Part shown: positions 36,418-58,630 of the stretch, in pieces
How positions within the stretch are numbered: position 1 is the first letter of the stretch
Layout of the letters: each line of letters opens with the position of its first letter
Assembly: GCA_044892525.1 (NCBI GenBank)
Contig: CM097886.1
Span: forward strand, 28,396,001 to 28,460,000
DNA length: 64,000 nt
Source of the DNA: Schmidtea polychroa
Taxonomy: Eukaryota
Reading direction: 5' to 3'
Program-made: the position numbers and the translations under genes
Notes under the pieces: generated by a model
Database searches by the model: none
The model's input: only the letters and a program-made list of their open reading frames with translations
Told to the model about the DNA's origin: nothing

Positions 36418-39104
36418 TTTGACAAATAAAATTATAAAAAAGAACGACATTTTGCAAAAGTTACTTTTAGTGAATCAAATTTTAAAATTTAATCGAGAGT
36501 TGTTTTTTATAAAAGTTTTTTTTTGTGAATTTTTACTGTTTTGGCTTTCAGTTTGTTCGTAATAAATGTAACTTGCAAACTTTAATTTAGAATTATATAT
36601 CTAATTTTACTTCGTTCAAATAAAAAGACATTAAAGAACTCCCACTTTTTACTTGTTTTTATTTCAACAGAGTGAGGCAAGATAAGTAAAGCAGTAAGAA
36701 GAATTTAGTTATCACCTGAAAGAACCAGATTTGTATGAGCGGATAAAATGCTTTTCTAAACTCAACCAACATTTAATAGTGAAAAGTAAATCTTTTTGTA
36801 TTACAGTGCTGGCGTGTGATTTAGATTGAAAAGGAGCTAGAAATTGACTTCAGTTAAATTCAAAAAGTTTGAGATCTTCTCAGTTGATTTCAAAAATGAT
36901 CATTTTAGTCGTGAGGCTTCTGGACCATCAGAGAATAGAAGAAATTCACCGGGCATGATTGAGAGTAAAACGACTATCATGTCTTAACAACCCGTGTGAG
37001 CACCATCAGCGTTACCGAAAAGATAAATTATTATTTTTTTAAATCTCTGTAATGAAAGGTATAAACAAGAATAAACCTAAGGTATAAACCTAAGGACTTT
37101 CCATTGCATAAAACTTTTTGTTAGACACTTATTCTAACAATATACACTCCTCCACGAAAAACTTAGACTTTTCCGCCATGAATTCAATTATTTAATTTTT
37201 AATTAATTTTATGTTCAATAAACCGTTTCATGGAAATCCGATTCTTTATAAATTCAAAGATCTTCTGGAACTTTTAAATATTGGTAAATTCGAGAGTTTT
37301 TTTTTGTTCATCTCTGATTTATCTTTGTTTTCCTCTAAAATTTCTTCTTATCTACATTTCGACAATAGATCGTTGTTTCAATTGTTAAAATATTTAAATA
37401 ACACTTGATAAGGGCAGTGCCGAAAATTTGAAATAAATAAGAAAAAAAATGAAGATAATCGGAATTCAAAAGTTAATACTTGACAATTTTTAAATGTTTC
37501 GAGTGTTGGGCTAGAACTGATTTCTAGACCCAAAGTTGGGAATGGGACGAAATGTGTCAGTACACAACACGCATACCCAGCATTAAGTTTACTTAAATAA
37601 AAATATATAAAACACCAAGTAAACAATGATAATAGAGAGATAATATACCCAAAAATAAAACATCTGAATTAAAAATAAAATAAAACACGAGCAAGAAGTA
37701 TTACACGAAAACTTACTCAAATATAACCGAAAGACATAAAACAACAAAAAACAAATTCGAATAAAGGCGATTAGTAAAAATTAAAAAAAAAAAATTAAAG
37801 AAAATCTTCATAAAATCTTACGTAAAGAAAATTATATCGATATTTTGAATAAAAATCCAGAACAATTCATAAAAATGGCGAAATCCATCATGACGGCCAA
37901 ACGACCCAATAAAATTTATAAAAAATAAATATTTTAGTTTAAAAAATAAATATTTTAGAAAAGAAATCATAAAAAACAATTTAAAAATAAGAAATAGATT
38001 GAATTTAGCATGGACTGTTCTGGAAATGCTGAAATCCATCATGGAGGCAAATTTAATAAAAAATAATTCGAAAATAAAATTTCAAAAATAAAAACAAAAA
38101 TTCTTACTGAAAAATCGCCATCAAAATCGATAAAAATTAAAAATCGAATGTTCGAGAATTAAAATAATCTGAATTTGTTTTACTGCATCAATGCACGCAT
38201 GTATACTTACACGTCAAACAGAGGCTATATAAACTAACACATTTCGTCACTTTTTAAGCAAAGAAAAAAAAATGCAAATGAATATTTTTACTCTTATGCC
38301 AAATTTTTGGTTTTGATTTTTCTGAGATTGTAGGTAAGGACGATTTCATTGTGAATTATAAATTATTATTATTGAAACCTTGTTTTCATTATTTCTTTTT
38401 AACTATAGAAATGTAGGTTTGAGTGAGATCGTCGGTTATCATTGATTTTGAAGCGAGATCCCAGTCAACCCTGCACCTATGCACTTCATCATCGATGAGT
38501 AAACAGCCCACAATGATCGCAGGCCACTGCCTGGCACGCACTTATCAATATTATTGGTTTTTTTTGTTCAGGTCATTCGGAGGTCGCACCACTTCATGGT
38601 TCTGCCATGGAGTTAAGTCGATGAAATCCTCCGTCTGACTCTACCTATTTATTATAGGTCAGCCGTAAAGGGTTGACTTACCACACAACAGTAAGGTTTG
38701 TCGTAGTGGTCACAGTGGGGCCGCGAAAGCAAACACTCTTCCCGACTTTCAATACATGAATAACTTACATAGTTAAAATCTACATCCAAAATCATCACAA
38801 TACAATACACTAAGGTTAATAAACAGAGTAGATCTCAGACCTAAATTAATCACAACTCTACAACTCACAATTAATGTAGACGGTTAAATATCATCAAAAA
38901 CCAACTCTACCTATACGTTTGTCGAATCTAGATTTATAAATGTCCTAAATAAATTTTCTAGTAATAATGTAAAGTAAAGATTTTTTTCTAAATGATTGAT
39001 TTAGTAGCGATAGTATTCATAAAGGTGTTCGACATGCGTATCGGCAAGACTTGGATTTTAAATTGAATAGACTCTGAACTAACTATAAAAATACAAATCG
39101 TAAA

Positions 39105-40010
39105 CCCATAAAAGTATAAATTATCATCTCAATTGCATAAAAATATGAATTATACTTATAGATTTAATTTCTTCAAAATATAAATTATGATTAGTTATAA
39201 AGGTATAAATTACAAATTTAATTTTTCAAAAATATAAATTACAAGTTTATATTGACTGTAAAATTATAAATTATAACTCTAAGTTAATTACAAAAGTATA
39301 AATTATAATCCTAATTTCATAAAAATATAAATTATAATTAGTTATAAAAGTATAAATTATAAATTTAATTTCCTGAAAATATAAATTACAAATTTACATT
39401 GACTATAAATTATAAATTATAACTCTAAGTTAATTACAAAAGTATAAATTATAATCCTAATTTCATAAAAATATAAATTATAAATTATAACTCTAAGTTG
39501 ATTGTAAAAGTATAAATTATAATCTTAATTTCTTCAAAATATAAATCATGATCTTAAAAGTATAAATTATAAAATTATATTAGCTACAAAATATAAACTA
39601 TAAATTTACCTTAACTTCATAAAAATATAAATCATAAACTTAAAAATATAACTTATAAAATTATATTAGCTTTAGAAATATAAACTATAAATTGAACTTC
39701 ACCAAATATAAATTATACACTTAAAAAAAAAAAATAAATTATAAAATTATATTAGCTTTAAAATATAAACCATAAAATTAGCTTCATAAAAATATAAATT
39801 ATAAACTTAAAAATACAAATTATAAAATTATATTAGCTTTGGGAATATAAACTATAAATTGAACTTCACCAAATATAAATTATAAACTTAAAAGTATAAA
39901 TTATAAAATTATATCAGTTCTAAAATATAAACTATAAATTTAACTTCATAAAAATATAAATTATAAAATTATATTAGCTTTAAAATATAAACTATAAATT
40001 TAACTTAACT
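39105..40010. repeat. Degenerate AT-rich tandem array inside the LTR (copy at ~54658-55563)
   Basis: Repeated AAAATATAAATTATA / AAAAGTATAAATTATA / TTATATTAGCTTT modules. Confidence 0.85.
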
Positions 40011-40346
40011 TAGATTGCCTTTAACATCATAGTTGAAAATTTTTCATCAAAGACCCCCCATAAACCATATAGTCATCAACTACCACCTAAATATACTAAA
40101 TTAGCTTATCTTAATATATATTTAACTTATATTATATTTTAAAATATAAATTGAAAATTTTCATAAATGACCCCCCTTCAAATTATGTAGCCATTAACTA
40201 TTCCTTAGGTATACTGAATTGTATCATCTTCGTATAGAGTCAAATTATATTTCAAACCAAAAAAAAAAAAAAAAATAATAATTCCATAAATTTTCGTAAA
40301 TGATCCCCCCCCCATATGTAGTAATCTTATAAAAATATAAATTTAC

Positions 40347-40377
<31 letters not shown>

Positions 40378-41177
40378 GTTATTATTATTATTATTATTAT
40401 TATTAGCATTGTTACCAGTAACATTATCACTCTTACTATTATTATTACTATTATCATTATTATTATTATATTATTAAAATAATTATCTTTATTTCATAAA
40501 AATAAAATTATAAAACAAATTATTGATTTTGGGATTCCCCTATCTCTAAATTTAGTTTCAATGGCCCTATCTTCCAATAAAATTACGGAAAATCACTAAA
40601 ATCTATTTTTAGTAACACCCCCCCCCTGAAAACGACATCAATATTATTAATTTAAATTATATCCATATATGTATATATGTGTGGGTGTATATGTATGTGT
40701 ATATATAAGTGGATGTGTGTATGTACATACCGATTTATAAAACAACCTTATAACCATACGATAACCTTCCCCCTCAAGACCCCTGTTATGTAATGGTCAC
40801 AACCCCTTTAAGGTGATGGAACGAGGATAGAGTAGTTTACTGAAGTAATTTAGTAGAATCATTTATTAATTTATTAAAATTATTGGATTTATTTTTAACT
40901 AGATCAAAAGAAGAAAAAGAAAAACAAAGACTAAGTTTATTGATTTCGATCATCAAATTTATTCACATAATTGTTTCTTTGAATCATATTCATACCAAAA
41001 AGTCCTTCGAGCTCAGTTGATGGACCATCCCGATGAAATACATTTCCTGGGGTTGGAAAATGGAAAACTTATATTAAAATATCTTTCAGAATTTCTTTTA
41101 GATTTCCACAATTAAATAATTCCAAATTATTTCTCACAAATATATTCGATCAAAAAGAATTTTAATATTTTATTTAA

Positions 41178-41846
41178 TTACAACATCCTGAATTTATTTC
41201 TTTGCTTGGCTGCTTTAAGATCATAAATGGGCATTTTTCATTTATTAATCGGATAAGATCAGTTTTTCTGTACAACCTTTACATTCTTCACCCCAGCTTT
41301 CTAATATTTTTTGAGATCTTTAACGCGAGCTTTGTTTAGATTAATACCAGTAAGATCAATAGGTTTGTCTGAAAAATAGTTGAATTAATATTTAAAATCT
41401 TAACTGAACATACCATATTTTAATTCACCAATTTGTGCATCAATTGCTTTTAGTTTTTCAGACTTTTTCAGCGGGCATAACCCAACTCAAAGGCCGAGAC
41501 AAATGTTTTACAATATATGCAGTAGATGTTACCAATCCTCCAATATAATAACACTAAAAATAAATTACAATTTTATAGTAATCAGTTATAATACCTTACC
41601 AGACTTTATTCTTTTCCTTTACTTGTTTTGCTCATCTTTTTGAATTTATTTTCAATATTTTCGATATTTGTACTTTCATCTCCATCTAGACTATCTTTCA
41701 GGCGTCTCACAAACTTAACACAAACTGAACAATTTTTAAATATAATAAAAATAAGTGCCAAATACCTTCGCAATTATTTTCATTAACTGTAGCTGACATT
41801 ACATAGTAAACAATGATTAGAAAAGAAAAACTGATAAAATTTTCAT
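41178..41846 (-). pseudogene. MANF: Captured MANF/ARMET gene copy, 4 exons, disabled (in 5' LTR)
   Basis: Reconstructed MKILSVFLFLIIVYYVMSATVNENNCEVCVKFVRRLKDSL...[38 protein letters not shown](C)[66 protein letters not shown]; GT-AG introns 41725-41765, 41554-41599, 41369-41413; one nonsense codon, a 2-bp deletion and several 1-bp homopolymer deletions. Confidence 0.92.
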
Positions 41847-42870
41847 TGCAAAATATTACTAATATAAAAAAAAATGGTTTGTTAAAAAAAAATAATTAGT
41901 TAAAACAAGTTTAAAATACTTCAAACTGACGTATAAGTTTTGTTTAAAATGTAAGTAACGAGTATTGTAAAATTAATTTAATATTATTATAAATTTTGAA
42001 TTAAAATTTTCTTAAAATTCTAGAAAAAAAAAAATCTATTATTAATAGAAAACAAATTTTTAAAAATAAATAAAGTTTGAGTCAATTTGAATTTTCTAGA
42101 AGTATCTCTTAAAATTATATAGGGAATTGTTTTGTAACAGTTATTGATGTATTTTGAATTTATTTAACTTGAATTAAAAATATAATATTAACAAAAATGT
42201 ATTGTGAGATTTTGATTGTTGATCTAACCATCTCTCTATAACTACCCGGGCTCAACAAAGGGGAGTGTCATTGTAGGTCAACTAGGACAGTCATAGTCAC
42301 CGCGAAATACGCTTAGTCAAATAATACGCGGTCATAAACAATCATGGTTCTTGTAAAGTTATTATATTTTGTTGTTGTGGTTGGTGAAATTTCTGACCCT
42401 TATTTGTATGTTCACTAATATATAAGTTGTTTGTTTTTTGATTATTTTCTAATTAAATTCATTATTCCCAAAAATTTCTTAAGGTATGTTTAATAAACTT
42501 TGGCTATGTTTCACTTAATTTGTGGTATTGTATGAACAGGTTTTAATGGATTAATGTATGATTCCTGATGACTTATGATCGTTTGAGGATAGAAAGTTTG
42601 TATAGGCATAGTTGAGAAAGTAATTATAATAAGGGACCTGCGTAAATCGGACATATATCTTCTAACGATAGTCCGTGAACCCCGTAGAGTGCTCGACAAT
42701 TACAGTGCAAGTAGTGCGCTCACTTTTTGCGAGCACTCACCCTCTTGATACAGTACCAACGTTGATCATTCAACGGGTATCAAGCGGTAAACAATGTTGT
42801 ATCTTGGGTTACGCTGGTAACAGCACTAAAGAGCAAAATATTTGATCATCAGTAACCCACCATACAAATT

Positions 42871-42888
42871 TGGGGGCTCAGCCGGGAT
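42871..42888 (+). promoter_or_regulatory. Primer-binding site, tRNA-Pro-like
   Basis: TGGGGGCTCAGCCGGGAT, 16/18 match to the canonical TGGGGGCTCGTCCGGGAT, 8 nt after the LTR end. Confidence 0.85.
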
Positions 42889-43749
42889 ATTTAAACTTTC
42901 TTGGTAAAGAACCTGTAAGTAGACGGGAATGCATAGCAGTTTTTTGATCAGGAAATGAAATGCTTTATGCAAGAGTAAGAAAGATTGTTTTCTCAAATAA
43001 CTAGACATGATGTGTGAATATGCGTGTATGATCAAAATGAATGTTGAATGTTGTACATGATGAATAAAATGTTTTAAATTATGTAAATATAGAAAATCGA
43101 TAAAACTGGGTATGAGAATAATGTATGAGCGTTCCGTGTTGATGGGACAGAATGTTGATGGGTAAGAAATGAAATAAAAATCAAAAATAAAAAAAATTGT
43201 AAATATAAACAACTAATACTTTGGATATAAGAAAATAATAAAAAATTCAAAAATAGGGAAAAGGGGGGGATAGAAAATAGCGGTATATAGAAAAAGGGGA
43301 TAAAGCATAAAACAGTGAATTGCGAAATAGAAATAGATAGGTGATGCAATTAATTAAAAATAGGGGGAAGATGTAAAAATAAGTTAAAGATTAAAGGGTT
43401 ATATTGAGTACTTGATCAAATGACTAAAATTATGGACACGCTGGGATCAAAAGGGTTACGTAGACTAAGATAATAAACTAGAGGGAACGGATAAAAATGT
43501 GCGGAACATCATTTAATGGATTGGGAGCCTAAACTAACAGGGTAAAACAGCTATTGAACTTACTTAATTTGAATAAGGAAATAAATGGGTAGAGGTAAGC
43601 TAATTAAAGGGGAATAAGAACACTTAATAAAATGCTGAATTAATAAAGTATAACTTGATGGAATTAACCGGCTACATTATAAAGAAACTTGAAAATTCGT
43701 AAATTTAACTAACAACTCACTACAAAGATTGAATTGAAAAGCAGAGCAG

Positions 43750-44161
43750 TTGGCAAACATCCAAGAAGGACTGATCTTAAAACCAAGACCAGTTGATGAT
43801 GAATTGTGTATAATGACGAGAATTGCTACACCAAATGTGGAATTAACTACTCAAAGAGTATATCAGATTCAGAATTTACGTTTAGATAAGGCCAAATTTA
43901 ACATCAAATGGCAAGAATTAAAGATAAAAATTTAAACGGTTGAAGATGCGATAAGAGAGGCGATCGATAATGAGTTCAAATGTTGTGTGTGTAGAAGCAA
44001 TGAGATAAAAATAATGATGGTACATTGCGGACATCGATGTTATTACCAAGATTATGCATTGAAACTGAAACCATTGTAATGTATGTGATGCAAACGTGAG
44101 AGAAAGAGTAGTAGTGTACCTCCCTAAGGGAGATGTAGAAAAATTAAAGATGATGAAATGA
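43750..44161 (+). pseudogene. Decayed RING-finger (C3HC4, IAP/MDM/neuralized-like spacing) ORF
   Basis: In-frame continuation past TAA at 43933 gives CCVCRSNEIKIMMVHCGHRCYYQDYALKLKP, then after a 1-nt frameshift CNVCDANVRERVVVYLP; two expected Cys are TAC/TAT. Confidence 0.75.
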
Positions 44162-44878
44162 ATTGCTGCTGAGTGTGAGTTAGTAAAAAGTTAGTAAAAC
44201 TAATTCCATAATAGCAACCGAAAGGTATAAAACATACGTTGAACATAGACATATGAAATACACAAAAGCCGTTAAATAAATAGACAAGCAACACACAAAT
44301 TAAATTGGCGAAAGCCGTGAATTAAATACAGGACTGGCTGGGATCGCATCAAGTGTGAGTTGATCTATAAGATCAGTACGATTACCATTTTTTTTCCTGT
44401 TTTTGTTTTATTATTTTTGGCATAGAGAGACAGGACCATAAGGGGATGAGAAGCATATCGTCCCTACGATGCTTACACGGATGGGGAAATCCTGATCACC
44501 TTGATGAGAAGAGTATAATTGGGCCCATCGCAAATGTTGGAGAGTTTCTGTCGAGTGACTGATCACCACTTGTGGGAAATGAACCAACGCGATTATTATA
44601 TTTTTTGAATTTGGGAGACTAGGACAAACTAGAAGGGTAAATAAAAAGAAAAAGATAAAAATAAAAATTGAAAATGTGCACCAAAAGATTAAAAATTAAC
44701 ATTATCCGAGAGCAGCTGCGGATTTGAAGAAACCGTTTTTGGACTTCAAATCGGATGAGGAGTACTCATTGATATGAATTTTTCCCTAGCGAGTGATGAG
44801 GCACCCGAGTACAGCGGCTAACCACCGGACTGTAGTGTCCAGGAGATTATCAGCCAAGGGACTGATGATGCTGGATCA

Positions 44879-45450
44879 CCCAATACAAAAACCCGGATAC
44901 CACACCGAGTATTGGGCGCACTTTTTTGAGTTGCTAGCGGGACTTGATACAAAAACCCGGAAGGGTAGCGAGCGAGAGAGACCCAGTTACCTACACCGAG
45001 TATTAAGGAGCCCAGTGAAACGGTTGTGAGATGCGGGTCAACCGGTAAAGGACTCGTACTCAACAGGCAACCAAGATTGGACCAGTTGTGAGGCGGAGGA
45101 CCGAAAGTCAACTGCATATCCAATTTCCTTTTATCTTCACTAGTCGGGAGATCTGGTTCATCACTTTTGAGAATCAGGATCGAGGCGATTAGATATTTCC
45201 GTGTTTTTTAAATCCTGATAGATAGGATGTTTTTTCTTCGTGATTATTGCTAGCAGGGGTCGGTACAAAACCCGGATGCCCACACCGAGTACCGATAGGC
45301 CCAGTGAAACGGCAATGAGATTAGAGTTACCGGTATTAGGCTCTTTTCAATAGGCGGCCAAGAATTGAGCCAGTTGTGAGGCCTCAGCAGATTAGGAATT
45401 TGAGTAGGAGGAGCCTTGAATTTTTAATTGGTCCGAAAGTCAACTGTCAA
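44879..45450 (+). other. Repeated structured-RNA-like modules in the 5' leader
   Basis: Three copies of stem-AAAA(A)CCCGG..ACACCGA-stem with different but complementary closing stems; two copies each of CCCAGTGAAACGG..ACCGGTA and CAGTTGTGAGGC..CCGAAAGTCAACTG. Confidence 0.6.
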
Positions 45451-45560
45451 CTCAATTTAATCGCGGTAGGGACGATAGTAGGTGTAAAAACCGAAAGCGT
45501 CGAGGGGTTGAAGAAACCTCATTTAGGGCATTTGAAACCGGTCAGGGACCGAAGACCGCG

Positions 45561-45880
45561 AATATGGCGTAATGGTGTAAAAGCCCAGACGTCGAGGAGT
45601 CGTAAAAGACTTCAGATTATGATTAAACCGGCCGGAAGCCGATGCCAACGTAGAGGTCTAACAAACCAAAGCGTTGATGGGTAATAATGGATAATATGGC
45701 GTAATGGTGTAAAAGCCCAGGCGTCGAGGAGTCGTAAAAGACTTCAAATTATGATTAAACCGGCCGGAAGCCGATGCCGACGTGGAGGTCTAACAAACCA
45801 AAGCGTTGATGGGTAATAATGGATTATATGGCGTAACGGTGTAAAAGCCCAGGAGTCGAGGAGTCGTAAAAGACTTCATG
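45561..45880 (+). repeat. ~2.4 tandem copies of a 132-bp unit
   Basis: ATATGGCGTAA recurs in units starting at 45561, 45693 and 45825. Confidence 0.9.
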
Positions 45881-46842
45881 GGATTAAAATGAGTTGATTA
45901 AACCGGCCAGAGAGCCGATGGTAATTGAGTGAAATGATTTAAATGAAATAAGAGAGTTAATTAAACCGGCCAGGGAGCCGATGGTAAATAAATGTAGACG
46001 CAGAGATCGCGCGAACCAAAGCATCGATGATTAACTATAAACAAACGATTAAGATGAAATTGATTAAATTGAATAGATTAAGTGCGACAAAGATGTAATG
46101 AGTAAAGGAAAATTATGATAGAGCGCCGGCGCAAGAGAAACTGAAGCCAAATTTTTGAATGGGGAAAAGCGAATGAGGAGACATTAATTAAGTTACTGAT
46201 GAGTTTTATATGTATATGACTAATGATATATATTTTCAATTATATAATTGATGTTGTGATTATATGATAGATAATTGATACGACGATATAGATAATTGAT
46301 ACGAGTTATAGATAATTAAAAATGGACTTAAATTCAAAGGGGGTGAGTAGCAAAAAGTAAAAGCGTACCATGAATTAGAAAAGGAACAGCGAGAGAAATA
46401 ATGAGTAAAGAGTAGTATAAAATAAAGAAAATAGGGAAATAAATGAAGGGTAGGATAAAATGAATAAAATATTATGATATGTACTAGGAGTGTTAATTAT
46501 TTTAGAATAAGTCAATCAATAAGTCAGAAGGAAGTCAATACAAGCCAAGAATTCAAGAGAAATAAAGAGAAATCAAAAATTCAAAAGAAATCAAATAAGG
46601 AATCAAGAGAATCAAACGAGGATAAAAGAAAGCTAAACAAAGTCAAATTAAATAACAAGAGGAAAATTAAAGCGTTGGCCAACGAAACACAGTGAAATTC
46701 AAAAGGGATTATTAAAGCAAGAAAAATTGATAATAAAGCCAATCGAACGAGATCGCCGAGCAAAGGAGGCTCTAGTTTATTAGGAAACGCAGGGAGACAA
46801 AGAGCCAAGAGAAACAGAAGAATCAATAAGAAACCAGCGTCA

Positions 46843-48573
46843 GTGAAAACATTATTTGAATCAGACAGCTTAACCAACGAAAGTGAAAACAGCGACGATA
46901 TTAAAAGAAACGAATTATATCCGGTAACTGATATCAAACCAACAGACAAGGAAGATAGTAGTTCAGGCATAACAAGTTTGTGTCGAGATATAATGTTAGA
47001 CGGAAACCAAGTGAACAACCCGAATGGGTCAGAGTCGACATACACACCCGAGATAAACCATGTCAACGTCAATGTTGGAGAATTTAGAGAAAGATTTCGA
47101 GGAGAACCATTCGATGGGAATATTAATGAACTAGAAACGTTTATAAAAGAATTCGAGGTATATATTACGATATGTCACTGGCCAGACATAGTCGTACGAG
47201 AGCGAATACCATTATATTTAAGAGGAAGTGCACAAGATGTATATTTAGAGGCAAAGTGTGATGCAACAAAACTAAAAACATGGAAATCAATAAAGAATTT
47301 TTTAATAAAAACATTCGGTAGCAAAAGGGAAGTAAATCGCAAAATGTTGGATTTTCTGCATCGAAAGCAGAAATACAATGAGTCAAACGCACTATATGCA
47401 TGTGAATTAAGACGACTGGCAAAAGAAGCATTCGATTCAAATCAAACAGTTCCGGAAGACAAGATAATAGCCGTATTCGTAGAGGGTATGAAAAGAAAGG
47501 ACATACGAGCAACAGTGGGTTGCCGAGCACCAGACACGCTCGAGGAAGCATTAAAAATCGCTAATAAATGTGAAAACTACTTGACTCCAGTACAAGTAGC
47601 AGCAATGGCAGCAGTACCAATAGCTACAACACCAACAACGACAACCGAAATTAATCAAACCAACAATGAAAATCTAGGAATGAATCAATTTATCTCAGAA
47701 TCGCAACAGTTGTTCAAGGCGCCAAAAACGACAAATCCAGATAACAGAGGTAATATTCAATTTTACACTAATAATTTCAGGAGCAACGAGAACAATAATC
47801 AGAAGTGTAACATATGTCAACGACTAGGACATTGGAGCAACGAGTGTTATAAGACAAGGATGTGCCAAAATTGCGGTAAAAGGGGGCACACAGAAAATAT
47901 ATGCCGAGGACCAATGATGTCGATGAGAGGAGGAAGGACTAGAACCTGCTACAGTTGCAACCAACTTGGACATGTGGCGAGAGAATGCGCAATGAGGACA
48001 AAACATAATCAACCAAGAGCAAACGATCCAAGTCAAAATATACAAGTCAACATCATGCAGGAAATTGAACAGTTGAAAAAGATGATCCAACGGATACCAG
48101 AGGATATCCAAAAACGACCAACAAGAGAACAACAAGATCAGCAACGAATCGAGGGGCAGAGACCACTAAACGAAAAAGCCAGAGAAATTCAAAAAAAATG
48201 GAAAAAGCGAGAAACCAACACCGGAAGAATAAATATGATGAGATTAATGAACAAAGGGGAACCGCACACTGCGGAGCAGTGTGTTAACAAGGAAGGGAGC
48301 GATATGACCGTAATCAACGAGACAAAAGTGATAAAAGAAAATGGGTCACATCAATTGACGGAGCAATTGACAGAACTGAGTAGCGAGGATAAAATAAAAA
48401 TAATACAAGGGTTCACCAAAGAAGAAAAAGAAAAGAGACGAAGAAGAGATGAAACAGGCACGAACCAAAAAGCAACGAGATTGTTACAAAGAATCGAATT
48501 CAGAGGGTATTACTACAAAAAATTGAAGATAGAATTAGAAGAGAAGAACCAAATTTTACGGATGAGCAAGTAA
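46843..48573 (+). CDS. gag: Retrotransposon Gag with three CCHC zinc knuckles
   Basis: Capsid-like PFDGNINELETFIKEFE..W..IPLYLRGSAQDVY; knuckles CNICQRLGHWSNEC, CQNCGKRGHTENIC, CYSCNQLGHVAREC. Track start is GTG; first ATG near 46993; the frame is open back to a TGA at 46693. Confidence 0.92.
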   Translation: MKTLFESDSLTNESENSDDIKRNELYPVTDIKPTDKEDSSSGITSLCRDIMLDGNQVNNPNGSESTYTPEINHVNVNVGEFRERFRGEPFDGNINELETFIKEFEVYITICHWPDIVVRERIPLYLRGSAQDVYLEAKCDATKLKTWKSIKNFLIKTFGSKREVNRKMLDFLHRKQKYNESNALYACELRRLAKEAFDSNQTVPEDKIIAVFVEGMKRKDIRATVGCRAPDTLEEALKIANKCENYLTPVQVAAMAAVPIATTPTTTTEINQTNNENLGMNQFISESQQLFKAPKTTNPDNRGNIQFYTNNFRSNENNNQKCNICQRLGHWSNECYKTRMCQNCGKRGHTENICRGPMMSMRGGRTRTCYSCNQLGHVARECAMRTKHNQPRANDPSQNIQVNIMQEIEQLKKMIQRIPEDIQKRPTREQQDQQRIEGQRPLNEKAREIQKKWKKRETNTGRINMMRLMNKGEPHTAEQCVNKEGSDMTVINETKVIKENGSHQLTEQLTELSSEDKIKIIQGFTKEEKEKRRRRDETGTNQKATRLLQRIEFRGYYYKKLKIELEEKNQILRMSK

Positions 48574-48653
48574 AAGAAAAAGTAAAAGACAACTGATTCA
48601 GGAAAAATGAGTGGTTCGAAAAGAAAGAACCAAGTAACAGAGCCAATATAAAC

Positions 48654-51392
48654 ATGCTGAGACAAATACAGAATGATCAGGCGGACCAGGAAGACGAGAA
48701 AAGTGCGGTGAGTAGCCTGAGAAGTGAATTATTTCAATCAAGTGATGAAAATAATGAACAAGGAACACCTCAAAATAACGAAGAGGGTGAGAGCGACGAT
48801 ATGGAATCACCGATAGAAACTGACGATGAGGAAATATTTGAGGAAATTTCCGACACGGTATCGGAAAGAGAACGAAATGAGAGCTATATCAACGAACCAA
48901 CATACAGAAAATGTATAAAACTGATAACTGAAGCATACCAGTGGGAAGGAGGTATATTAACGGCAACATGGAAAGATTTGGTGACGAAATATAAAGGAAA
49001 ATTGAAAGAAGTCGAGCCAGATCAATGCCGGGTGAGTATTCAACACCCCGAAACTCAGATGCAGATTACTGAATTAAAAGTAACAAATATTGATGAACTG
49101 TATATTTGGGTACAGGAAAAGAATAAACAGCTATACGACAATTGTTATAAAGTTAAAATGAGCATACATCTAGTAGATATGATGAGATGGCCAAACGAAG
49201 TTAATATCTTAATCTTAAAGAAAAACAGAGACAGCGAATCAGTAACGGAAATACTGAGGAAAATCCAACAGATATTCAACAATGAAGTGGAACCAGAAAT
49301 AGAAAAGACTGAACAAAAGATAATGAAGGAAAATCAAATAATCGTAGTAAAACAAGCAATCGATCAAGCGAAGAAATATATTAACAGATTTAGGGAAAGA
49401 TGGCCGCAGCTAATGAAACAGTTTGTCAAAGACGTACGGGATACTGAGATTATGGGATTTGAATATAAACGAGCAACGGAGTTGATATCAAAATATGGTG
49501 AATACGAGAGAATCAGATGTGAACAAGAATTACCATGGCCATCCAACAGAAAAGTGACAATAGTAAGAGAATCACTGAAGAATAGTCATTTAAATAAACA
49601 CGAAGAAATGATCAAAACATCACATGTCGAAGACGACATTTTTGGAAAAGGCCGGAGTGGAAAAAATGACAAAGACCATAACGACAAAAATGAGGAAGAC
49701 GACGGGAACCATGAAAGGAACAACATAAATGGGAACTCAAACGAACGAGATAATGAAGAAGACAAGGAGTCAGAAGATGACGACGAAGACTTGAAGGATA
49801 CTGAGGACAACTCAGACCAAAGTGAAGACAACCAACATAATGAAACAGAGAACGACAAACGAAAGTCCCCACTGCATAACATAGTAATGCGGAAGAATCT
49901 AAACCAGTCACTCCTACTACAAATTATCCTAATAATACTAACGTCAATTTGCCTAACAGAAACGAAAAATACGCGAATTACGAGAGGAAATCTGAAAGAA
50001 GGCGAACTATTCATGATAAAAGTCAGCGGCAACAACGGAAACGCGGTCGGGATATGCATCCAATTGATGGAAGGAACCGGAGTAAGTTGTGATTTTAGAA
50101 CGATAACAAAAGGGAGGATTTTCAATAGTCAAAATGTAGAACCTGAATTATGCGGAGACTACAACATTTGCGAAGACATAACATCAGAAGAAAAAGAATT
50201 GGAAAGAGCTAACGAAACCGGAGTACATGTCGCAATTAAAGCTACAATGGAAGGTATCGAAATAATAGATAAAGGAAATTTGCCAACAACGCAAATATGT
50301 TTTAGAGATGACGAAGACATATGTATAACGGTGGACATGAAACGAGATCGCGAATTTTTTTGGACAAACGTAAAACCAAACACCAACATGGTGGTATGCG
50401 CAGGTACCCAGGCAATAGTGGTATGTAAAGCAGTTAAAACCGCGCAAATAAAAAGCAGGCCAAAAAGTATGGCTAGTAAACGATATCAACCAAGGATCAA
50501 ACCGGCAATTAAGAAACGCCAGAAACAATCCCGTAGGGGAATGATAAGAGGACAGCACCAAACCAAGAAAAACAAAACAGTAATATGGATCAAAGATGAG
50601 AGACGAGAAGTACTAGTAAATGTCGAATTCAACAAGAAAAGAGAAGAAGTAATCACGGTCAGAAACCAAGGTGAAGAACCAATAGTAAGAGTATGTGTAC
50701 TAAACAGGACAGGAATAGTCGACTGCATAGAAACACTACTTGACAAAGGTGCAGAAGTTAAAATGACAATAGGAGAAAGAAAGGGACGATATCACATATG
50801 CGTTCTTAAAAACGGAAGCGATTTAAGTTCATGCCAAGCAATAACCAGACAACGACCACGGATGATAAACATACTATTGACAACCAGAAAACCAAAAGAA
50901 GTGGAAAAGCCAAAAGGAAACGAACATCTAACGGCAGAAGAAACGAAACAGTTATACCAGATGCTCAAGAAAAATAAAACACAAGAGGCAACTACAACAG
51001 AAACTAAAATGATGATAACGACAGGAAAATTCAACGAGACACTGATAACCGTTAAAATGATGTGGATCGCTAGCGCAATAATGAGTGTAGTGATAGCATC
51101 AATAATAATCCAATGGATAAGAACCTCCAAAATATGTAAACAAAAACCTAAAGGCAGAAAAAGATGGCCACAAGTGGAGAATTCCGAATATGGTATTCCA
51201 ACAGAAAACCCGAATCCAGAAGAGTACGAAGCGATTGAAGATCCAAGGTCAAGCAGACTATGGACGCAAGAATTACTCAGAATACAAACCCTAAACGATT
51301 GGGTAAACGAATTTGACATATACCGGCTAACGGATGAAAGATATGGGGGGATGCGCACATTGCATTCAGGTCCCCTGGCAACAATGGTATAA
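48654..51392 (+). CDS. 912-aa ORF2: acidic N-terminal half plus type-I membrane glycoprotein (Env-like) module
   Basis: Signal-peptide-like MRKNLNQSLLLQIILIILTSICLT from ATG 49887; Cys-paired beta-rich ectodomain with six N-x-S/T sequons; TM MMWIASAIMSVVIASIIIQWI; tail with YxxI motifs; no RT, RNase H or integrase motifs. Confidence 0.75.
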   Translation: MLRQIQNDQADQEDEKSAVSSLRSELFQSSDENNEQGTPQNNEEGESDDMESPIETDDEEIFEEISDTVSERERNESYINEPTYRKCIKLITEAYQWEGGILTATWKDLVTKYKGKLKEVEPDQCRVSIQHPETQMQITELKVTNIDELYIWVQEKNKQLYDNCYKVKMSIHLVDMMRWPNEVNILILKKNRDSESVTEILRKIQQIFNNEVEPEIEKTEQKIMKENQIIVVKQAIDQAKKYINRFRERWPQLMKQFVKDVRDTEIMGFEYKRATELISKYGEYERIRCEQELPWPSNRKVTIVRESLKNSHLNKHEEMIKTSHVEDDIFGKGRSGKNDKDHNDKNEEDDGNHERNNINGNSNERDNEEDKESEDDDEDLKDTEDNSDQSEDNQHNETENDKRKSPLHNIVMRKNLNQSLLLQIILIILTSICLTETKNTRITRGNLKEGELFMIKVSGNNGNAVGICIQLMEGTGVSCDFRTITKGRIFNSQNVEPELCGDYNICEDITSEEKELERANETGVHVAIKATMEGIEIIDKGNLPTTQICFRDDEDICITVDMKRDREFFWTNVKPNTNMVVCAGTQAIVVCKAVKTAQIKSRPKSMASKRYQPRIKPAIKKRQKQSRRGMIRGQHQTKKNKTVIWIKDERREVLVNVEFNKKREEVITVRNQGEEPIVRVCVLNRTGIVDCIETLLDKGAEVKMTIGERKGRYHICVLKNGSDLSSCQAITRQRPRMINILLTTRKPKEVEKPKGNEHLTAEETKQLYQMLKKNKTQEATTTETKMMITTGKFNETLITVKMMWIASAIMSVVIASIIIQWIRTSKICKQKPKGRKRWPQVENSEYGIPTENPNPEEYEAIEDPRSSRLWTQELLRIQTLNDWVNEFDIYRLTDERYGGMRTLHSGPLATMV

Positions 51393-51747
51393 GAAAGTGA
51401 TGAGTCGATGTAAATAGTGTGTATATAAACGTGAGGGTAAAAGTAGTTTAGTAGATTAGTAATATGTTCAAAAAAAAAGGTACAAAAAAATGGGTAGGAT
51501 AACTACGTATTATGAATGAATCAGAGAAACGAGGATCAAGTATATCAAACGAGGATACCACATGTTGTTGAATTGGGAAATCAACCACTAGTAAACATTA
51601 ATCAGACATAAATAGTAGAAATTGATACAAGTACAACGATAAACCAACCAAGTTAGTCAGCAGGATCAATGTGAAGAACACAACGTGAATTAATGACAAA
51701 TGACAAACCATACCCAAGAATATCGGTTACGTAATTAGAATGCGTTA

Positions 51748-52524
51748 ATGGAGAGCATCAATAGAAACTCGATATACATAACAAGAATAAAAGAGCAACA
51801 ACAAATAATCGCACAATTAGAATACAATAACAAACAGTTGATAAGCCAAATAAAATGGGAGGCAGGTGAAATCAGGAGATTACACGAAAACGTTCTGCAT
51901 GATGATATCACGAGTTTAGTTGAGTGGATAACCGGCCTACCAGGAACTGGGGAACCGGACTCAACGGGAGAGACCTAAAAGAAGGGGAAAGTAGCCCTGT
52001 AAACAAACGAAATTATAGCCAAAGTAGAAGCTCCGAGATTAAACGCTATCATGGCAGAATGCCGAGGGAAAGTGGAGAGAAGTGGAGGAACAAAACTATT
52101 ATTTATGAGCAGATAAGAAAAATTAGGTCAAGTCATAGATTATGACATGGAGGTACCACACGACTTGTAACAAGAAAAGCAGAAGTTAAAGAGAGAACCA
52201 CCGCAAGAATCAGCCACATCCCAGATGACAATAATAATAAAATTCTTAGAAGAAATAATGCAGCGAACAATGATGACTGTCAACGAATGTCCGAGAAACT
52301 ATGAAACAAAGACGCTCGAAGAAATAAAGGAAAGGGTAAATAACGCAATCAAAGAAAAGCCAATTACTCAAGATGAAATAATAAGAACATTGAGAGAGAT
52401 ATAGATGGGAATAATAACAACTATGAACAAAATCCCGATGAACCATGAGACAACGACCAAAACTTTAGAAGGAATAAAGAGGAGAATATCAACTACCTTC
52501 AAATCTATCAAATCTATCTTCTAA
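51748..52524 (+). pseudogene. Fragmented third ORF, coiled-coil-like
   Basis: Protein-like pieces (IKEQQQIIAQLEYNNKQL..., TLEEIKERVNNAIKEK...) broken by stops and frameshifts. Confidence 0.35.
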
Positions 52525-53057
52525 AATCTTCAAATCTAGAGCCGTCATCGAGATGAGATCCCAAACAACCGAGTGTATAAATCCTGATATAAACCGACAA
52601 TGATCCTGATATAATCTGACAACGATCTTGAGTTGATTGAAAATGTTCTTATTATGTGTTGACAATGATCCTGATTCGATTGACAATGATCTGAAAATGA
52701 TCTAAATTTGATTTAACAATGATCCTGACATGATTCGACAATGATATGATTTGACTATTATTGTGATTTGATGCCAATATTATATATTACTTTGATATTA
52801 TTTGAGCATAACAATTGGATTAAATTTTGTGTGGACCGACCGTGGTCTTCTTTCTCTTCATCTTTAAACCAATCTGTAGCATGTAGCGTATCAGTAGAAA
52901 CTTTTTATGTATGTGGGTATTGAGGTCACGACCCTGTAGCTCGTGGACCCAATTACATGTAGGCACTTGTAATAAAGTGCAACCAATTCTGTCTAATTAT
53001 ATCTTGAACTGTTGATTAAATTGCGGGTCGCAATTTTATGGGCCCCCGAGTGTTTTA

Positions 53058-55899
53058 TGTTGGGCTAGAACTGATTTCTAGACCCAAAGTTGGGAATGGG
53101 ACGAAATGTGTCAGTACACAACACGCATACCCAGCATTAAGTTTACTTAAATAAAAATATATAAAACACCAAGTAAACAATGATAATAGAGAGATAATAT
53201 ACCCAAAAATAAAACATCTGAATTAAAAATAAAATAAAACACGAGCAAGAAGTATTACACGAAAACTTACTCAAATATAACCGAAAGACATAAAACAACA
53301 AAAAACAAATTCGAATAAAGGCGATTAGTAAAAATTAAAAAAAAAAAATTAAAGAAAATCTTCATAAAATCTTACGTAAAGAAAATTATATCGATATTTT
53401 GAATAAAAATCCAGAACAATTCATAAAAATGGCGAAATCCATCATGACGGCCAAACGACCCAATAAAATTTATAAAAAATAAATATTTTAGTTTAAAAAA
53501 TAAATATTTTAGAAAAGAAATCATAAAAAACAATTTAAAAATAAGAAATAGATTGAATTTAGCATGGACTGTTCTGGAAATGCTGAAATCCATCATGGAG
53601 GCAAATTTAATAAAAAATAATTCGAAAATAAAATTTCAAAAATAAAAACAAAAATTCTTACTGAAAAATCGCCATCAAAATCGATAAAAATTAAAAATCG
53701 AATGTTCGAGAATTAAAATAATCTGAATTTGTTTTACTGCATCAATGCACGCATGTATACTTACACGTCAAACAGAGGCTATATAAACTAACACATTTCG
53801 TCACTTTTTAAGCAAAGAAAAAAAAATGCAAATGAATATTTTTACTCTTATGCCAAATTTTTGGTTTTGATTTTTCTGAGATTGTAGGTAAGGACGATTT
53901 CATTGTGAATTATAAATTATTATTATTGAAACCTTGTTTTCATTATTTCTTTTTAACTATAGAAATGTAGGTTTGAGTGAGATCGTCGGTTATCATTGAT
54001 TTTGAAGCGAGATCCCAGTCAACCCTGCACCTATGCACTTCATCATCGATGAGTAAACAGCCCACAATGATCGCAGGCCACTGCCTGGCACGCACTTATC
54101 AATATTATTGGTTTTTTTTGTTCAGGTCATTCGGAGGTCGCACCACTTCATGGTTCTGCCATGGAGTTAAGTCGATGAAATCCTCCGTCTGACTCTACCT
54201 ATTTATTATAGGTCAGCCGTAAAGGGTTGACTTACCACACAACAGTAAGGTTTGTCGTAGTGGTCACAGTGGGCCGCGAAAGCAAACACTCTTCCCGACT
54301 TTCAATACATGAATAACTTACATAGTTAAAATCTACATCCAAAATCATCACAATACAATACACTAAGGTTAATAAACAGAGTAGATCTCAGACCTAAATT
54401 AATCACAACTCTACAACTCACAATTAATGTAGACGGTTAAATATCATCAAAAACCAACTCTACCTATACGTTTGTCGAATCTAGATTTATAAATGTCCTA
54501 AATAAATTTTCTAGTAATAATGTAAAGTAAAGATTTTTTTCTAAATGATTGATTTAGTAGCGATAGTATTCATAAAGGTGTTCGACATGCGTATCGGCAA
54601 GACTTGGATTTTAAATTGAATAGACTCTGAACTAACTATAAAAATACAAATCGTAAACCCATAAAAGTATAAATTATCATCTCAATTGCATAAAAATATG
54701 AATTATACTTATAGATTTAATTTCTTCAAAATATAAATTATGATTAGTTATAAAGGTATAAATTACAAATTTAATTTTTCAAAAATATAAATTACAAGTT
54801 TATATTGACTGTAAAATTATAAATTATAACTCTAAGTTAATTACAAAAGTATAAATTATAATCCTAATTTCATAAAAATATAAATTATAATTAGTTATAA
54901 AAGTATAAATTATAAATTTAATTTCCTGAAAATATAAATTACAAATTTACATTGACTATAAATTATAAATTATAACTCTAAGTTAATTACAAAAGTATAA
55001 ATTATAATCCTAATTTCATAAAAATATAAATTATAAATTATAACTCTAAGTTGATTGTAAAAGTATAAATTATAATCTTAATTTCTTCAAAATATAAATC
55101 ATGATCTTAAAAGTATAAATTATAAAATTATATTAGCTACAAAATATAAACTATAAATTTACCTTAACTTCATAAAAATATAAATCATAAACTTAAAAAT
55201 ATAACTTATAAAATTATATTAGCTTTAGAAATATAAACTATAAATTGAACTTCACCAAATATAAATTATACACTTAAAAAAAAAAAATAAATTATAAAAT
55301 TATATTAGCTTTAAAATATAAACCATAAAATTAGCTTCATAAAAATATAAATTATAAACTTAAAAATACAAATTATAAAATTATATTAGCTTTGGGAATA
55401 TAAACTATAAATTGAACTTCACCAAATATAAATTATAAACTTAAAAGTATAAATTATAAAATTATATCAGTTCTAAAATATAAACTATAAATTTAACTTC
55501 ATAAAAATATAAATTATAAAATTATATTAGCTTTAAAATATAAACTATAAATTTAACTTAACTTAGATTGCCTTTAACATCATAGTTGAAAATTTTTCAT
55601 CAAAGACCCCCCATAAACCATATAGTCATCAACTACCACCTAAATATACTAAATTAGCTTATCTTAATATATATTTAACTTATATTATATTTTAAAATAT
55701 AAATTGAAAATTTTCATAAATGACCCCCCTTCAAATTATGTAGCCATTAACTATTCCTTAGGTATACTGAATTGTATCATCTTCGTATAGAGTCAAATTA
55801 TATTTCAAACCAAAAAAAAAAAAAAAAATAATAATTCCATAAATTTTCGTAAATGATCCCCCCCCCATATGTAGTAATCTTATAAAAATATAAATTTAC

Positions 55900-55933
<34 letters not shown>

Positions 55934-58418
55934 GTTATTATTATTATTATTATTATTATTAGCATTGTTACCAGTAACATTATCACTCTTACTATTATTA
56001 TTACTATTATCATTATTATTATTATATTATTAAAATAATTATCTTTATTTCATAAAAATAAAATTATAAAACAAATTATTGATTTTGGGATTCCCCTATC
56101 TCTAAATTTAGTTTCAATGGCCCTATCTTCCAATAAAATTACGGAAAATCACTAAAATCTATTTTTAGTAACACCCCCCCCCTGAAAACGACATCAATAT
56201 TATTAATTTAAATTATATCCATATATGTATATATGTGTGGGTGTATATGTATGTGTATATATAAGTGGATGTGTGTATGTACATACCGATTTATAAAACA
56301 ACCTTATAACCATACGATAACCTTCCCCCTCAAGACCCCTGTTATGTAATGGTCACAACCCCTTTAAGGTGATGGAACGAGGATAGAGTAGTTTACTGAA
56401 GTAATTTAGTAGAATCATTTATTAATTTATTAAAATTATTGGATTTATTTTTAACTAGATCAAAAGAAGAAAAAGAAAAACAAAGACTAAGTTTATTGAT
56501 TTCGATCATCAAATTTATTCACATAATTGTTTCTTTGAATCATATTCATACCAAAAAGTCCTTCGAGCTCAGTTGATGGACCATCCCGATGAAATACATT
56601 TCCTGGGGTTGGAAAATGGAAAACTTATATTAAAATATCTTTCAGAATTTCTTTTAGATTTCCACAATTAAATAATTCCAAATTATTTCTCACAAATATA
56701 TTCGATCAAAAAGAATTTTAATATTTTATTTAATTACAACATCCTGAATTTATTTCTTTGCTTGGCTGCTTTAAGATCATAAATGGGCATTTTTCATTTA
56801 TTAATCGGATAAGATCAGTTTTTCTGTACAACCTTTACATTCTTCACCCCAGCTTTCTAATATTTTTTGAGATCTTTAACGCGAGCTTTGTTTAGATTAA
56901 TACCAGTAAGATCAATAGGTTTGTCTGAAAAATAGTTGAATTAATATTTAAAATCTTAACTGAACATACCATATTTTAATTCACCAATTTGTGCATCAAT
57001 TGCTTTTAGTTTTTCAGACTTTTTCAGCGGGCATAACCCAACTCAAAGGCCGAGACAAATGTTTTACAATATATGCAGTAGATGTTACCAATCCTCCAAT
57101 ATAATAACACTAAAAATAAATTACAATTTTATAGTAATCAGTTATAATACCTTACCAGACTTTATTCTTTTCCTTTACTTGTTTTGCTCATCTTTTTGAA
57201 TTTATTTTCAATATTTTCGATATTTGTACTTTCATCTCCATCTAGACTATCTTTCAGGCGTCTCACAAACTTAACACAAACTGAACAATTTTTAAATATA
57301 ATAAAAATAAGTGCCAAATACCTTCGCAATTATTTTCATTAACTGTAGCTGACATTACATAGTAAACAATGATTAGAAAAGAAAAACTGATAAAATTTTC
57401 ATTGCAAAATATTACTAATATAAAAAAAAATGGTTTGTTAAAAAAAAATAATTAGTTAAAACAAGTTTAAAATACTTCAAACTGACGTATAAGTTTTGTT
57501 TAAAATGTAAGTAACGAGTATTGTAAAATTAATTTAATATTATTATAAATTTTGAATTAAAATTTTCTTAAAATTCTAGAAAAAAAAAAATCTATTATTA
57601 ATAGAAAACAAATTTTTAAAAATAAATAAAGTTTGAGTCAATTTGAATTTTCTAGAAGTATCTCTTAAAATTATATAGGGAATTGTTTTGTAACAGTTAT
57701 TGATGTATTTTGAATTTATTTAACTTGAATTAAAAATATAATATTAACAAAAATGTATTGTGAGATTTTGATTGTTGATCTAACCATCTCTCTATAACTA
57801 CCCGGGCTCAACAAAGGGGAGTGTCATTGTAGGTCAACTAGGACAGTCATAGTCACCGCGAAATACGCTTAGTCAAATAATACGCGGTCATAAACAATCA
57901 TGGTTCTTGTAAAGTTATTATATTTTGTTGTTGTGGTTGGTGAAATTTCTGACCCTTATTTGTATGTTCACTAATATATAAGTTGTTTGTTTTTTGATTA
58001 TTTTCTAATTAAATTCATTATTCCCAAAAATTTCTTAAGGTATGTTTAATAAACTTTGGCTATGTTTCACTTAATTTGTGGTATTGTATGAACAGGTTTT
58101 AATGGATTAATGTATGATTCCTGATGACTTATGATCGTTTGAGGATAGAAAGTTTGTATAGGCATAGTTGAGAAAGTAATTATAATAAGGGACCTGCGTA
58201 AATCGGACATATATCTTCTAACGATAGTCCGTGAACCCCGTAGAGTGCTCGACAATTACAGTGCAAGTAGTGCGCTCACTTTTTGCGAGCACTCACCCTC
58301 TTGATACAGTACCAACGTTGATCATTCAACGGGTATCAAGCGGTAAACAATGTTGTATCTTGGGTTACGCTGGTAACAGCACTAAAGAGCAAAATATTTG
58401 ATCATCAGTAACCCACCA
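53058..58418 (+). repeat. 3' LTR (5361 bp)
   Basis: Near-identical to 37504-42862; followed by TSD CGAG. Confidence 0.95.
56734..57402 (-). pseudogene. MANF: Captured MANF/ARMET gene copy (in 3' LTR)
   Basis: Same sequence and lesions as 41178-41846. Confidence 0.92.
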
Positions 58419-58630
58419 CGAGTTACGACAAAGACATGATTATAAAATGATGATTGATGCATGAAAATAATTAAATTTAATTAAAAATAATTTATTAATT
58501 AAAATATTTCATCTTATTTGAATATAATTTCAAAAAGACTTCTGAAAGTAATTACGATAATATTCACTCATCAGAATTGCTAGTGTACCCCTAAATTTTA
58601 TTCAAATTAATAAAACTTGACAGTTTTTAT

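Follow-up and report, generated by a model that had tools for sequence, protein, structure and literature searches.

A candidate type I glycoprotein with a predicted Ig-like domain in the env position of a pol-less, Burro-related Ty3/gypsy element of Schmidtea polychroa

Introduction

The planarian retroelements Burro and GYPSM1 carry an env in frame between gag and pol (PMC6431247), and other env-carrying elements of flatworms are arranged GAG-ENV-POL, with an Env of the gB type (PMC13524379). Further context on the Burro elements is given in PMC8532177 and PMC11410931. A 2026 survey across invertebrate genomes sorted the env genes of Ty3/gypsy elements, by homology, into the F and gB kinds only (PMC13524379). 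Here we describe a 501-residue protein encoded at positions 49887-51392 of a 64,000-nucleotide stretch of the Schmidtea polychroa genome (assembly GCA_044892525.1, contig CM097886.1, positions 28,396,001 to 28,460,000), referred to below as the window. The frame lies between the long terminal repeats (LTRs) of a Ty3/gypsy element that spans 37504-58418 on the plus strand, and since env directly follows gag in Burro and in the flatworm elements, its place can fairly be called the env position. The protein is very probably a type I membrane protein, with an ectodomain that is likely to be immunoglobulin (Ig)-like.

The element resembles Burro and GYPSM1 in its Gag with three CCHC knuckles, its very long LTRs and the RING and MATH domains of its relatives (PMC6431247), as well as in a membrane protein after gag, probably in one frame originally. 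It differs in its interior of 10.2 kb, which lacks protease (PR), reverse transcriptase (RT), RNase H (RH) and integrase (IN), and which is not the giant interior with pol and a fusogenic env of those elements. Of MATH there is no more than a scrap, neither BCL2 nor BIR nor an F-like Env was found, and the slot is occupied by an Ig-like type I protein without a detected relative. The kinship with Burro rests on domain content, namely a Gag with two or three CCHC knuckles and relatives with MATH and RING domains, and these relatives carry no family name.

Compared with the env-carrying errantiviruses (F-type and HSV/gB-type, including six Schmidtea elements of GAG-ENV-POL order), the locus shares a signal, an ectodomain and a transmembrane (TM) segment right after gag (PMC13524379), whereas it has no pol and its ectodomain lacks a furin site and fusion peptide pair, heptads and the five gB motifs tested. 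Among membrane proteins other than Env that LTR elements encode, the closest comparison is offered by the sORF2/FAST-like proteins of the MDG1 group, TM proteins that such elements likewise retain and that also have a basic patch behind the TM (PMC11952523). Those proteins have an ectodomain of about 30 residues, are often myristoylated and are fusogen-like (PMC11952523), whereas the protein described here has an ectodomain of about 365 residues, disulfide-type domains and a cleavable-looking signal.

Results

A membrane protein in the env position

The initial methionine of the 501-residue translation is codon 431 of a frame that is open from 48597, and the two most hydrophobic 19-residue segments of that whole 931-codon frame are those expected at either end of a type I ectodomain. 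The first is a signal-peptide-like segment (49887..49958, residues 1-24) with a Kyte-Doolittle hydropathy of 2.04 over 19 residues and 3.17 over 11, for which the -3/-1 rule, applied by hand, suggests cleavage after Thr24. The second is a single TM segment (51051..51119, hydropathy 2.09), followed by a basic cluster (net +7, residues 401-425). Both were identified by hydropathy and charge, and on this footing we consider it very probable that the protein is a type I membrane protein, with a signal, an ectodomain, one TM and basic residues on the cytosolic side.

The intervening ectodomain, encoded like the rest on the plus strand, can be divided into five parts. D1 (49959..50198) is beta-rich, contains Cys57/68 and Cys89/95 and may be a degenerate third domain. 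D2 (50217..50444) is putatively Ig-like, with Cys138/146 and Cys171/180 and four strands in a low-confidence model. It runs into a polybasic linker (50436..50573) of 46 residues, 37% of them Lys or Arg and none acidic, whose dibasic sites include no canonical furin motif but could be cut by a convertase. D3 (50598..50849) is predicted to form a seven-stranded Ig-like beta-sandwich, with Cys270/280 and Cys305/316 and an ankyrin-like 13-mer inside. It is connected to the TM by a stalk (50850..51050) rich in Thr, Lys and Glu, with two sequons and an xIN-IL motif at its start. The cytosolic tail (51120..51392) comprises 90 residues and contains YGIP, YEAI, YGGM and a C-terminal T-M-V, which we take to fit a class I PDZ-binding motif.

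The original prediction for this stretch had described a repeated-domain surface receptor rather than a classic fusogen, and the features on which it drew are indeed present. These comprise a signal start and one TM, both seen by hydropathy; five (I/V)C-x6-10-C modules (at residues 56, 137, 170, 269 and 304); the tail motifs YGIP at 435 and YEAI at 447; and a TAG (49882-49884) two bases upstream of the ATG. As claimed, there is no R-X-K/R-R furin site, only minimal R-X-X-R at 30, 298 and 454. The count of six sequons holds for the ectodomain (109, 229, 273, 309, 363 and 383) and not for the protein, which has seven, one of them within the signal; six against 2.9 expected is borderline (p 0.05) and not clearly above chance. 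The cysteine pattern is more striking: the five modules compare with 0.23 in shuffles, a count of five being reached in 0 of 20,000 for a pattern chosen post hoc, and the six short C-x5-11-C pairs, which take in all 12 ectodomain cysteines, compare with 1.98 (p 0.003).

Predicted fold of the ectodomain

Structures were predicted with AlphaFold and compared both with 48,161 chains (given below as Z scores) and, using Foldseek, with the PDB and a viral library. The model of D3 has seven strands, with a predicted local distance difference test score (pLDDT) of 77.2 and a predicted template modeling score of 0.68. Its best structural match is an Ig-like sandwich (Z 9.0, root-mean-square deviation (rmsd) 2.5, 76 residues aligned), followed by a designed Ig domain (Z 8.6, rmsd 3.0, 70 aligned), C-terminal domains of the type IX secretion system (Z 8.3) and domain III of EFF-1 (Z 7.7, rmsd 3.0, 85 aligned). 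Seven strands in two sheets, aligned over most of the domain, were found for D3 only, as a prediction. In a model of the whole ectodomain, six strands appear in the last part (pLDDT 50-58), and all six recur in the model of D3. The modeling points to an ectodomain that is likely to be Ig-like.

Several results count against this assignment. The whole-ectodomain model, made from a single sequence, is poor (pLDDT 36.8), and its best Z in the structure search is 5.3. D3 was modeled with D2 as a second alignment row, which may favor a beta fold, and its five models range from 53 to 77. Foldseek of D3 against the PDB and the viral library gave no match at E 0.001, and Z values of 7-9 may mean merely a common arrangement. 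The folded ectodomain that had been anticipated is thus obtained for D3 as a seven-stranded sandwich, and not for the ectodomain as a whole.

D2 (residues 111-186) can be read strand by strand as colinear with D3 (238-321), at 21% identity. The likeness is modest (local p 0.12; global p 0.003-0.13 across three scoring schemes), sequence repetition among the modules is weak (local p 0.09-0.44), the three-way alignment of D1-D3 is poor, and no internal repeat was found at the DNA level in the membrane-protein stretch. D2, and perhaps D1, may nevertheless share the fold of D3. In such an arrangement modules 2 and 4 would close the C-C' hairpin and modules 3 and 5 the F-G hairpin, with disulfides assigned from position. 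The ectodomain is accordingly better described as two, perhaps three, seven-stranded domains with disulfide-closed hairpins than as the five repeated domains first proposed, the modules fitting better as hairpins of about three domains. Five independent mini-domains were rejected.

The last two modules had also been likened to fibronectin type III (FN3) domains of the FLRT/LRFN type. With FLRT/LRFN proteins and with the FN3 domains of cytokine receptors, D3 shares a seven-strand sandwich and an F-G Cys pair before the stalk and TM, with Z 6.3-7.0 for FN3 domains (IFNLR1 7.0, IFNAR2 6.6, ROBO1 and others). It differs in that there are no leucine-rich repeats and no Trp in strand B, and in having an extra C-C' Cys pair. 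No Pfam fn3 profile was matched, the canonical tyrosine-corner motif is absent, no L-x-P-x-T-x-Y occurs (a loose VKPNT is present in D2 only), and FN3 ranks below other Ig-like folds. An FN3-like fold is compatible with D3, whereas membership of the FLRT/LRFN type is unsupported.

Searches for relatives

No relative of the 501-residue protein was recovered. In a set of 5.8 billion sequences, 0 of 5,253 candidates near its length and 0 of 3,596 at longer lengths were related, and among 1.84 billion representatives the single match had its best stretch in the N-terminal half of the longer frame, with none for the membrane protein itself. The ESM Atlas (searched with the whole protein and D3), metagenome and viral contigs (searched also with alignments of this longer frame and of Gag), phages, PHROGs and NCBIfam yielded none either. 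Empty searches of this kind do not prove novelty. In the open-access literature we found no report of such a retroelement protein.

Link to gag and route of production

The membrane protein forms the last 501 codons of ORF2 (48597..51392, plus strand), an open reading frame (ORF) of 931 codons without a stop. The region of the N-terminal half (48471..49511) is homologous to P0002, a Burro-like polyprotein fragment with a MATH domain (E 3e-28), with 44% identity over 364 columns (E 1e-76; 44-45% for this half as a whole). This homology continues across the break between gag and ORF2, so that a single ancestral frame is probable. A possible MATH relic (49485..49562) gives a weak match (tblastn, 50% over 26 residues, E 0.18). 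In its third-position bias ORF2 is like gag (A3 0.50 vs. 0.46) and unlike the host kinesin gene of the window (0.35). A very acidic linker of about 70 residues (49650-49860) immediately precedes the signal and bears the reverse charge of the basic linker in the ectodomain.

It is reasonably probable, in our view, that translation yields a polyprotein joined to Gag, of which this protein, with its internal signal, is the C-terminal part. The internal hydrophobic segment would start translocation, signal peptidase would cut near Thr24 and the TM would stop transfer, while a protease from an autonomous relative would cut an xIN/xHN motif just upstream, freeing Gag from the membrane. The xIN motif occurs twice in gag, against 0.11 in shuffles (p 0.007), and three times in ORF2, against 0.25 (p 0.003); two of these sites recur in relatives, and a looser form lies immediately before the signal. 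There, a block (49843..49885) is common to a diverged sister lineage, with loose contig ends flanking it in runs X5 and X1. It encodes ...KSPLHNIV and is a candidate site of protease cleavage or, at the RNA level, a candidate acceptor. Beyond this block the sister has V-C-R in place of the V-M-R of the window, so that conservation extends to the AG but not to the Met. An internal Met as the start, as originally proposed, is consequently not upheld, the sister-lineage contig having no Met there and the frame being open upstream.

Production from a polyprotein also meets difficulties. A frameshift and a stop separate gag from ORF2 and a further stop lies within gag, which leaves this copy unable to make the polyprotein. 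Of the xIN sites, one lies after D3, on the lumenal side and beyond a cytosolic protease, and another inside a domain; the site before the signal agrees only with a motif that was loosened post hoc. Contigs of other copies carry a gap relative to the window in the stretch of the gag-ORF2 break, so that the break may be particular to the window copy.

A rather unlikely alternative is a spliced subgenomic mRNA that enters at 49885 and starts at the ATG at 49887 or at an ATG in an upstream exon. Splicing would account for the presence of an intact ORF even though the gag-ORF2 junction of this copy is broken, and this alternative draws on the TAG two bases before an ATG that exactly begins the signal, on the 43 nt ending at the acceptor that are common to the sister lineage with the AG kept, and on an acceptor that ranks, through a run of C, among the top 5% for total pyrimidines. 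However, the acceptor is T-poor, with 3 T in 17 nt, and 66% of the 843 interior AGs are equally T-rich or better; upstream, 430 codons remain open, with 45% identity to the polyprotein; and no joint at 49885 is present among the joints listed. Given the scarcity of T in the acceptor and the missing Met of the sister lineage, release from a polyprotein fits better than splicing.

Maintenance of the frame

The 931 codons of ORF2 contain no stop, where 65 would be expected in shuffles, compared with 4 in 140 codons of a RING relic and 5 in 254 of a relic downstream (Fisher p 4e-4 for ORF2 vs. the downstream relic), a comparison with an ascertainment bias in that ORF2 was chosen for being open. 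The core of the element, or part of it, is present in 20 of the 24 runs listed, and half its words or more in 9; the run with the largest share may itself be the source of the window. Contigs were compared for 4 of the 24. Gapless contigs cover parts of the ectodomain in X5 (49442-50821; 12 other letters in 1,380 nt), X1 (50302-50861; 4) and X16 (50316-50861; 4). Loose contig ends, translated by hand, reveal the sister lineage, which is in frame at the signal, TM and tail. Its TM reads W-I-T-S-A-I-V-S-T-I against W-I-A-S-A-I-M-S-V-V in the window, and there are similarly conservative changes at the start of the signal and in the tail (near 51307). This sister evidence amounts to 10-30 letters per place among the loose ends listed. 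With the stop counts, it suggests that the 501-residue protein is apparently under selection.

The element and its surroundings

The element is bounded by a 5' LTR of 5,359 bp (37504..42862) and a 3' LTR of 5,361 bp (53058..58418), both on the plus strand, both TG...CA, and flanked by the target-site duplication CGAG just upstream (37500-37503) and directly after (58419-58422). The two LTRs are 99.925% identical and differ by one 1-nt and one 3-nt indel only. The insertion is therefore young, unless the assembly homogenized the LTRs. This LTR structure and target-site duplication, together with a Ty3-type Gag with zinc knuckles, identify it as Ty3/gypsy. No Pfam pol family (PR-RT-RH-IN) was matched in the two long ORFs and the interior contains no further long ORF; with no pol in its 10.2 kb, the element is a non-autonomous derivative. 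The interior consists of a decayed RING ORF, gag, ORF2 and a probable decayed downstream ORF.

The decayed RING-finger ORF (43696..44118, plus strand; tblastn E 7e-13, Pfam zf-C3HC4_3 E 1.8e-4) has 4 stops in 140 codons and is intact in the relatives P0003, P0017 and P0020, upstream of their gag. The gag gene (46474..48573, plus strand) matches the Pfam families Ty3_capsid (E 1.7e-7) and zf-CCHC (E 4e-11), encodes three CCHC knuckles and a coiled-coil-like tail, and has one in-frame stop near its start, at 46693; 21 relatives of Gag are 41-57% identical, three of them with RING in front. A T-rich AG acceptor-like site lies at 46490-46512, where the gene models of relatives join the RING ORF to gag, and a spliced gag message is possible. 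The probable decayed downstream ORF (51739..52500, plus strand) has 5 stops in 254 codons, against 18 in shuffles, and no relative of it was identified.

Eight nucleotides past the 5' LTR, an 18-mer resembling a primer-binding site (PBS; 42871..42888, plus strand) is presumably of the tRNA-Pro type. The PBS table of PMC13524379 does not list this motif. Upstream of the 3' LTR (53020-53057) there is no evident polypurine tract, and a purine-rich run lies about 30-50 nt inside this LTR. The 5' leader (44200-46000) is GC-richer and contains 132-bp tandem repeats at 45561-45878. Contig depth over the leader is far above that of the coding region in run X1, so the leader may be common to further families, as a packaging region would be expected to be. 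Each LTR contains nested AT-rich tandem repeats that extend over about 0.9 kb (39080-40010 and 54630-55560). An Rfam search of 37-59 kb gave no match.

Elsewhere in the window, the 3' end of an LTR of the same family (95.8% identical, minus strand) abuts 35 bp of a plus-strand LTR start at 63295-64000, which may reflect the insertion of one copy into another. Fragments of older LTRs, from this family or one related to it and 76-81% identical, are found at 24416-24651, 33568-34242 and 36188-36418, with no primer site after them at the two 3' ends checked. A satellite of about 71 units of 79 bp occupies 27565-33155, and a unit of about 677 bp occurs in three near-identical tandem copies at 14360-16405. 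The host kinesin gene (60660-62606), at a distance of 2.2 kb from the 3' end of the element, consists of a single long open frame whose motor domain is C-terminal, and a Ser/Asn-rich ORF of 901 codons without a Pfam match (17279-19984) is probably a large host exon.

Discussion

Taken as a whole, we give an even chance to the explanation that this pol-less, Burro-related Ty3/gypsy element keeps, in its env slot, a selected type I glycoprotein with a role in attachment or adhesion. The role itself, which would be exercised on particles or at cell contacts and would not involve membrane fusion, is proposed tentatively, as a little less than an even prospect, because the protein would present tandem disulfide-closed Ig-like domains on a stalk, carries sorting motifs and is kept beside gag without pol or a fusogen. 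In this model, the tyrosine motifs and PDZ-type end of the tail would sort the protein to the membrane where Gag assembles. As pol and any fusogen have been lost, the element must ride with an autonomous partner, and it would be this Burro-like partner that supplies RT, integrase and any fusogen.

The same protein and fold could instead serve as a host-directed receptor mimic, decoy, signaling modulator or entry block, with no part in particle attachment, which we regard as unlikely. Its tail, with YGIP, EYEAI and a PDZ-type end, carries motifs typical of signaling or adhesion receptors, yet the tails of viral envelope proteins commonly have tyrosine sorting motifs as well. The FN3 domains of the cytokine receptors IFNLR1 and IFNAR2 are among its structural neighbors (Z 7.0 and 6.6), whereas the searches of sequence sets found no host relative, and the protein sits in the env slot beside a retained gag. 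A regulatory cargo would be in keeping with Burro polyproteins, which carry many host-regulatory domains, including MATH, BCL2, BIR and RING (PMC6431247).

A further reading, in which the ectodomain, or at least D3, is a decayed ankyrin stretch or a mosaic of polyprotein and host scraps between hydrophobic segments, strikes us as improbable. It originates in the sequence matches of D3 alone in the PDB, all 22 of those listed being ankyrin-repeat proteins. In one of them, ASB8, the first repeat aligns over 45 residues without a gap. These matches count against an Ig-like fold. The best summed E-value is 2.5e-6, but the best single stretch reaches only E 1.1, and summed E-values inflate on repeat proteins. 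The paired modules are 33-36 residues apart, a spacing close to the ankyrin period; all 12 cysteines, however, lie in short pairs. The protein has no match to the Pfam ankyrin profile and no TPLH motif, H and A+L are scarce (6-10%) where V+I+T make up 24-34%, D1-D2 have no PDB match, and both AlphaFold runs make the ankyrin-like segment a strand. Also in favor of this reading are the MATH scrap upstream and the ankyrin repeats that Burro elements carry (PMC6431247).

We attach equally little probability to a very diverged or truncated fusogen of gB type, F type or class II, cut in the polybasic linker into surface and membrane subunits. The linker does contain KKR and SRR, and D3 resembles EFF-1 domain III, a class II domain that likewise stands before a stem and TM. 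The Z score of that match is tied with those of many unrelated Ig folds, however, and the structured part ahead of D3, only about 160 residues, is too short to hold class II domains I-II. Pfam gave no env or fusion family at E 0.1. Of the class I features of an F-type Env, a canonical furin site with a fusion peptide behind it is missing, the polybasic linker does not lead into a hydrophobic segment, and the best heptad windows fall in the TM and tail. Neither CX6CC nor CXXC is present in the protein, and none of five short motifs read from six gB-type Env sequences of Schmidtea occurs in it, in a motif check rather than a full alignment. Foldseek returned no class I or class III fusogen among the matches listed, which does not exclude these classes. 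The position in the env slot remains in favor of a fusogen, since planarian elements carry a gB-type (PMC13524379) or F-like env (PMC6431247) there. The central claim of the original prediction, a receptor-like surface protein and not a classic fusogen, is supported: D3 is predicted to fold as a beta-sandwich, and neither an F-type or gB-type nor a retroviral signature of Env was detected. Taken with the points on repeats, FN3 type and splicing above, that prediction is partly supported. A host gene overlapped by the element was rejected, as the frame lies between the LTRs, has no introns and shares the strand bias of gag.

Returning to a selected attachment or adhesion glycoprotein, a bolder and rather doubtful extension is that this lineage exchanged a fusogenic env for a glycoprotein of tandem Ig domains that serves in adhesion or receptor binding. 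Such a protein would join F and gB as a third kind in the env slot, and it would be freed from the Gag polyprotein by means of an internal signal. The pol-less element would then bring attachment and borrow fusion and replication from an autonomous Burro, like the paramyxovirus G/F pair, in order to pass between cells.

A pol-less element with an open, apparently selected Ig-like surface protein in its env slot would escape homology searches for F and gB. If the protein proved to be only a receptor mimic or a mosaic of scraps, it would represent an unusual cargo in an element family already known for cargo. Otherwise, a pol-less element of this kind would show that retroelements can keep a surface protein for uses other than fusion, such as target-cell binding, adhesion or host manipulation, and would provide a testable handle on whether, and how, giant retroelements move between cells in an animal that is probably built on pluripotent stem cells.

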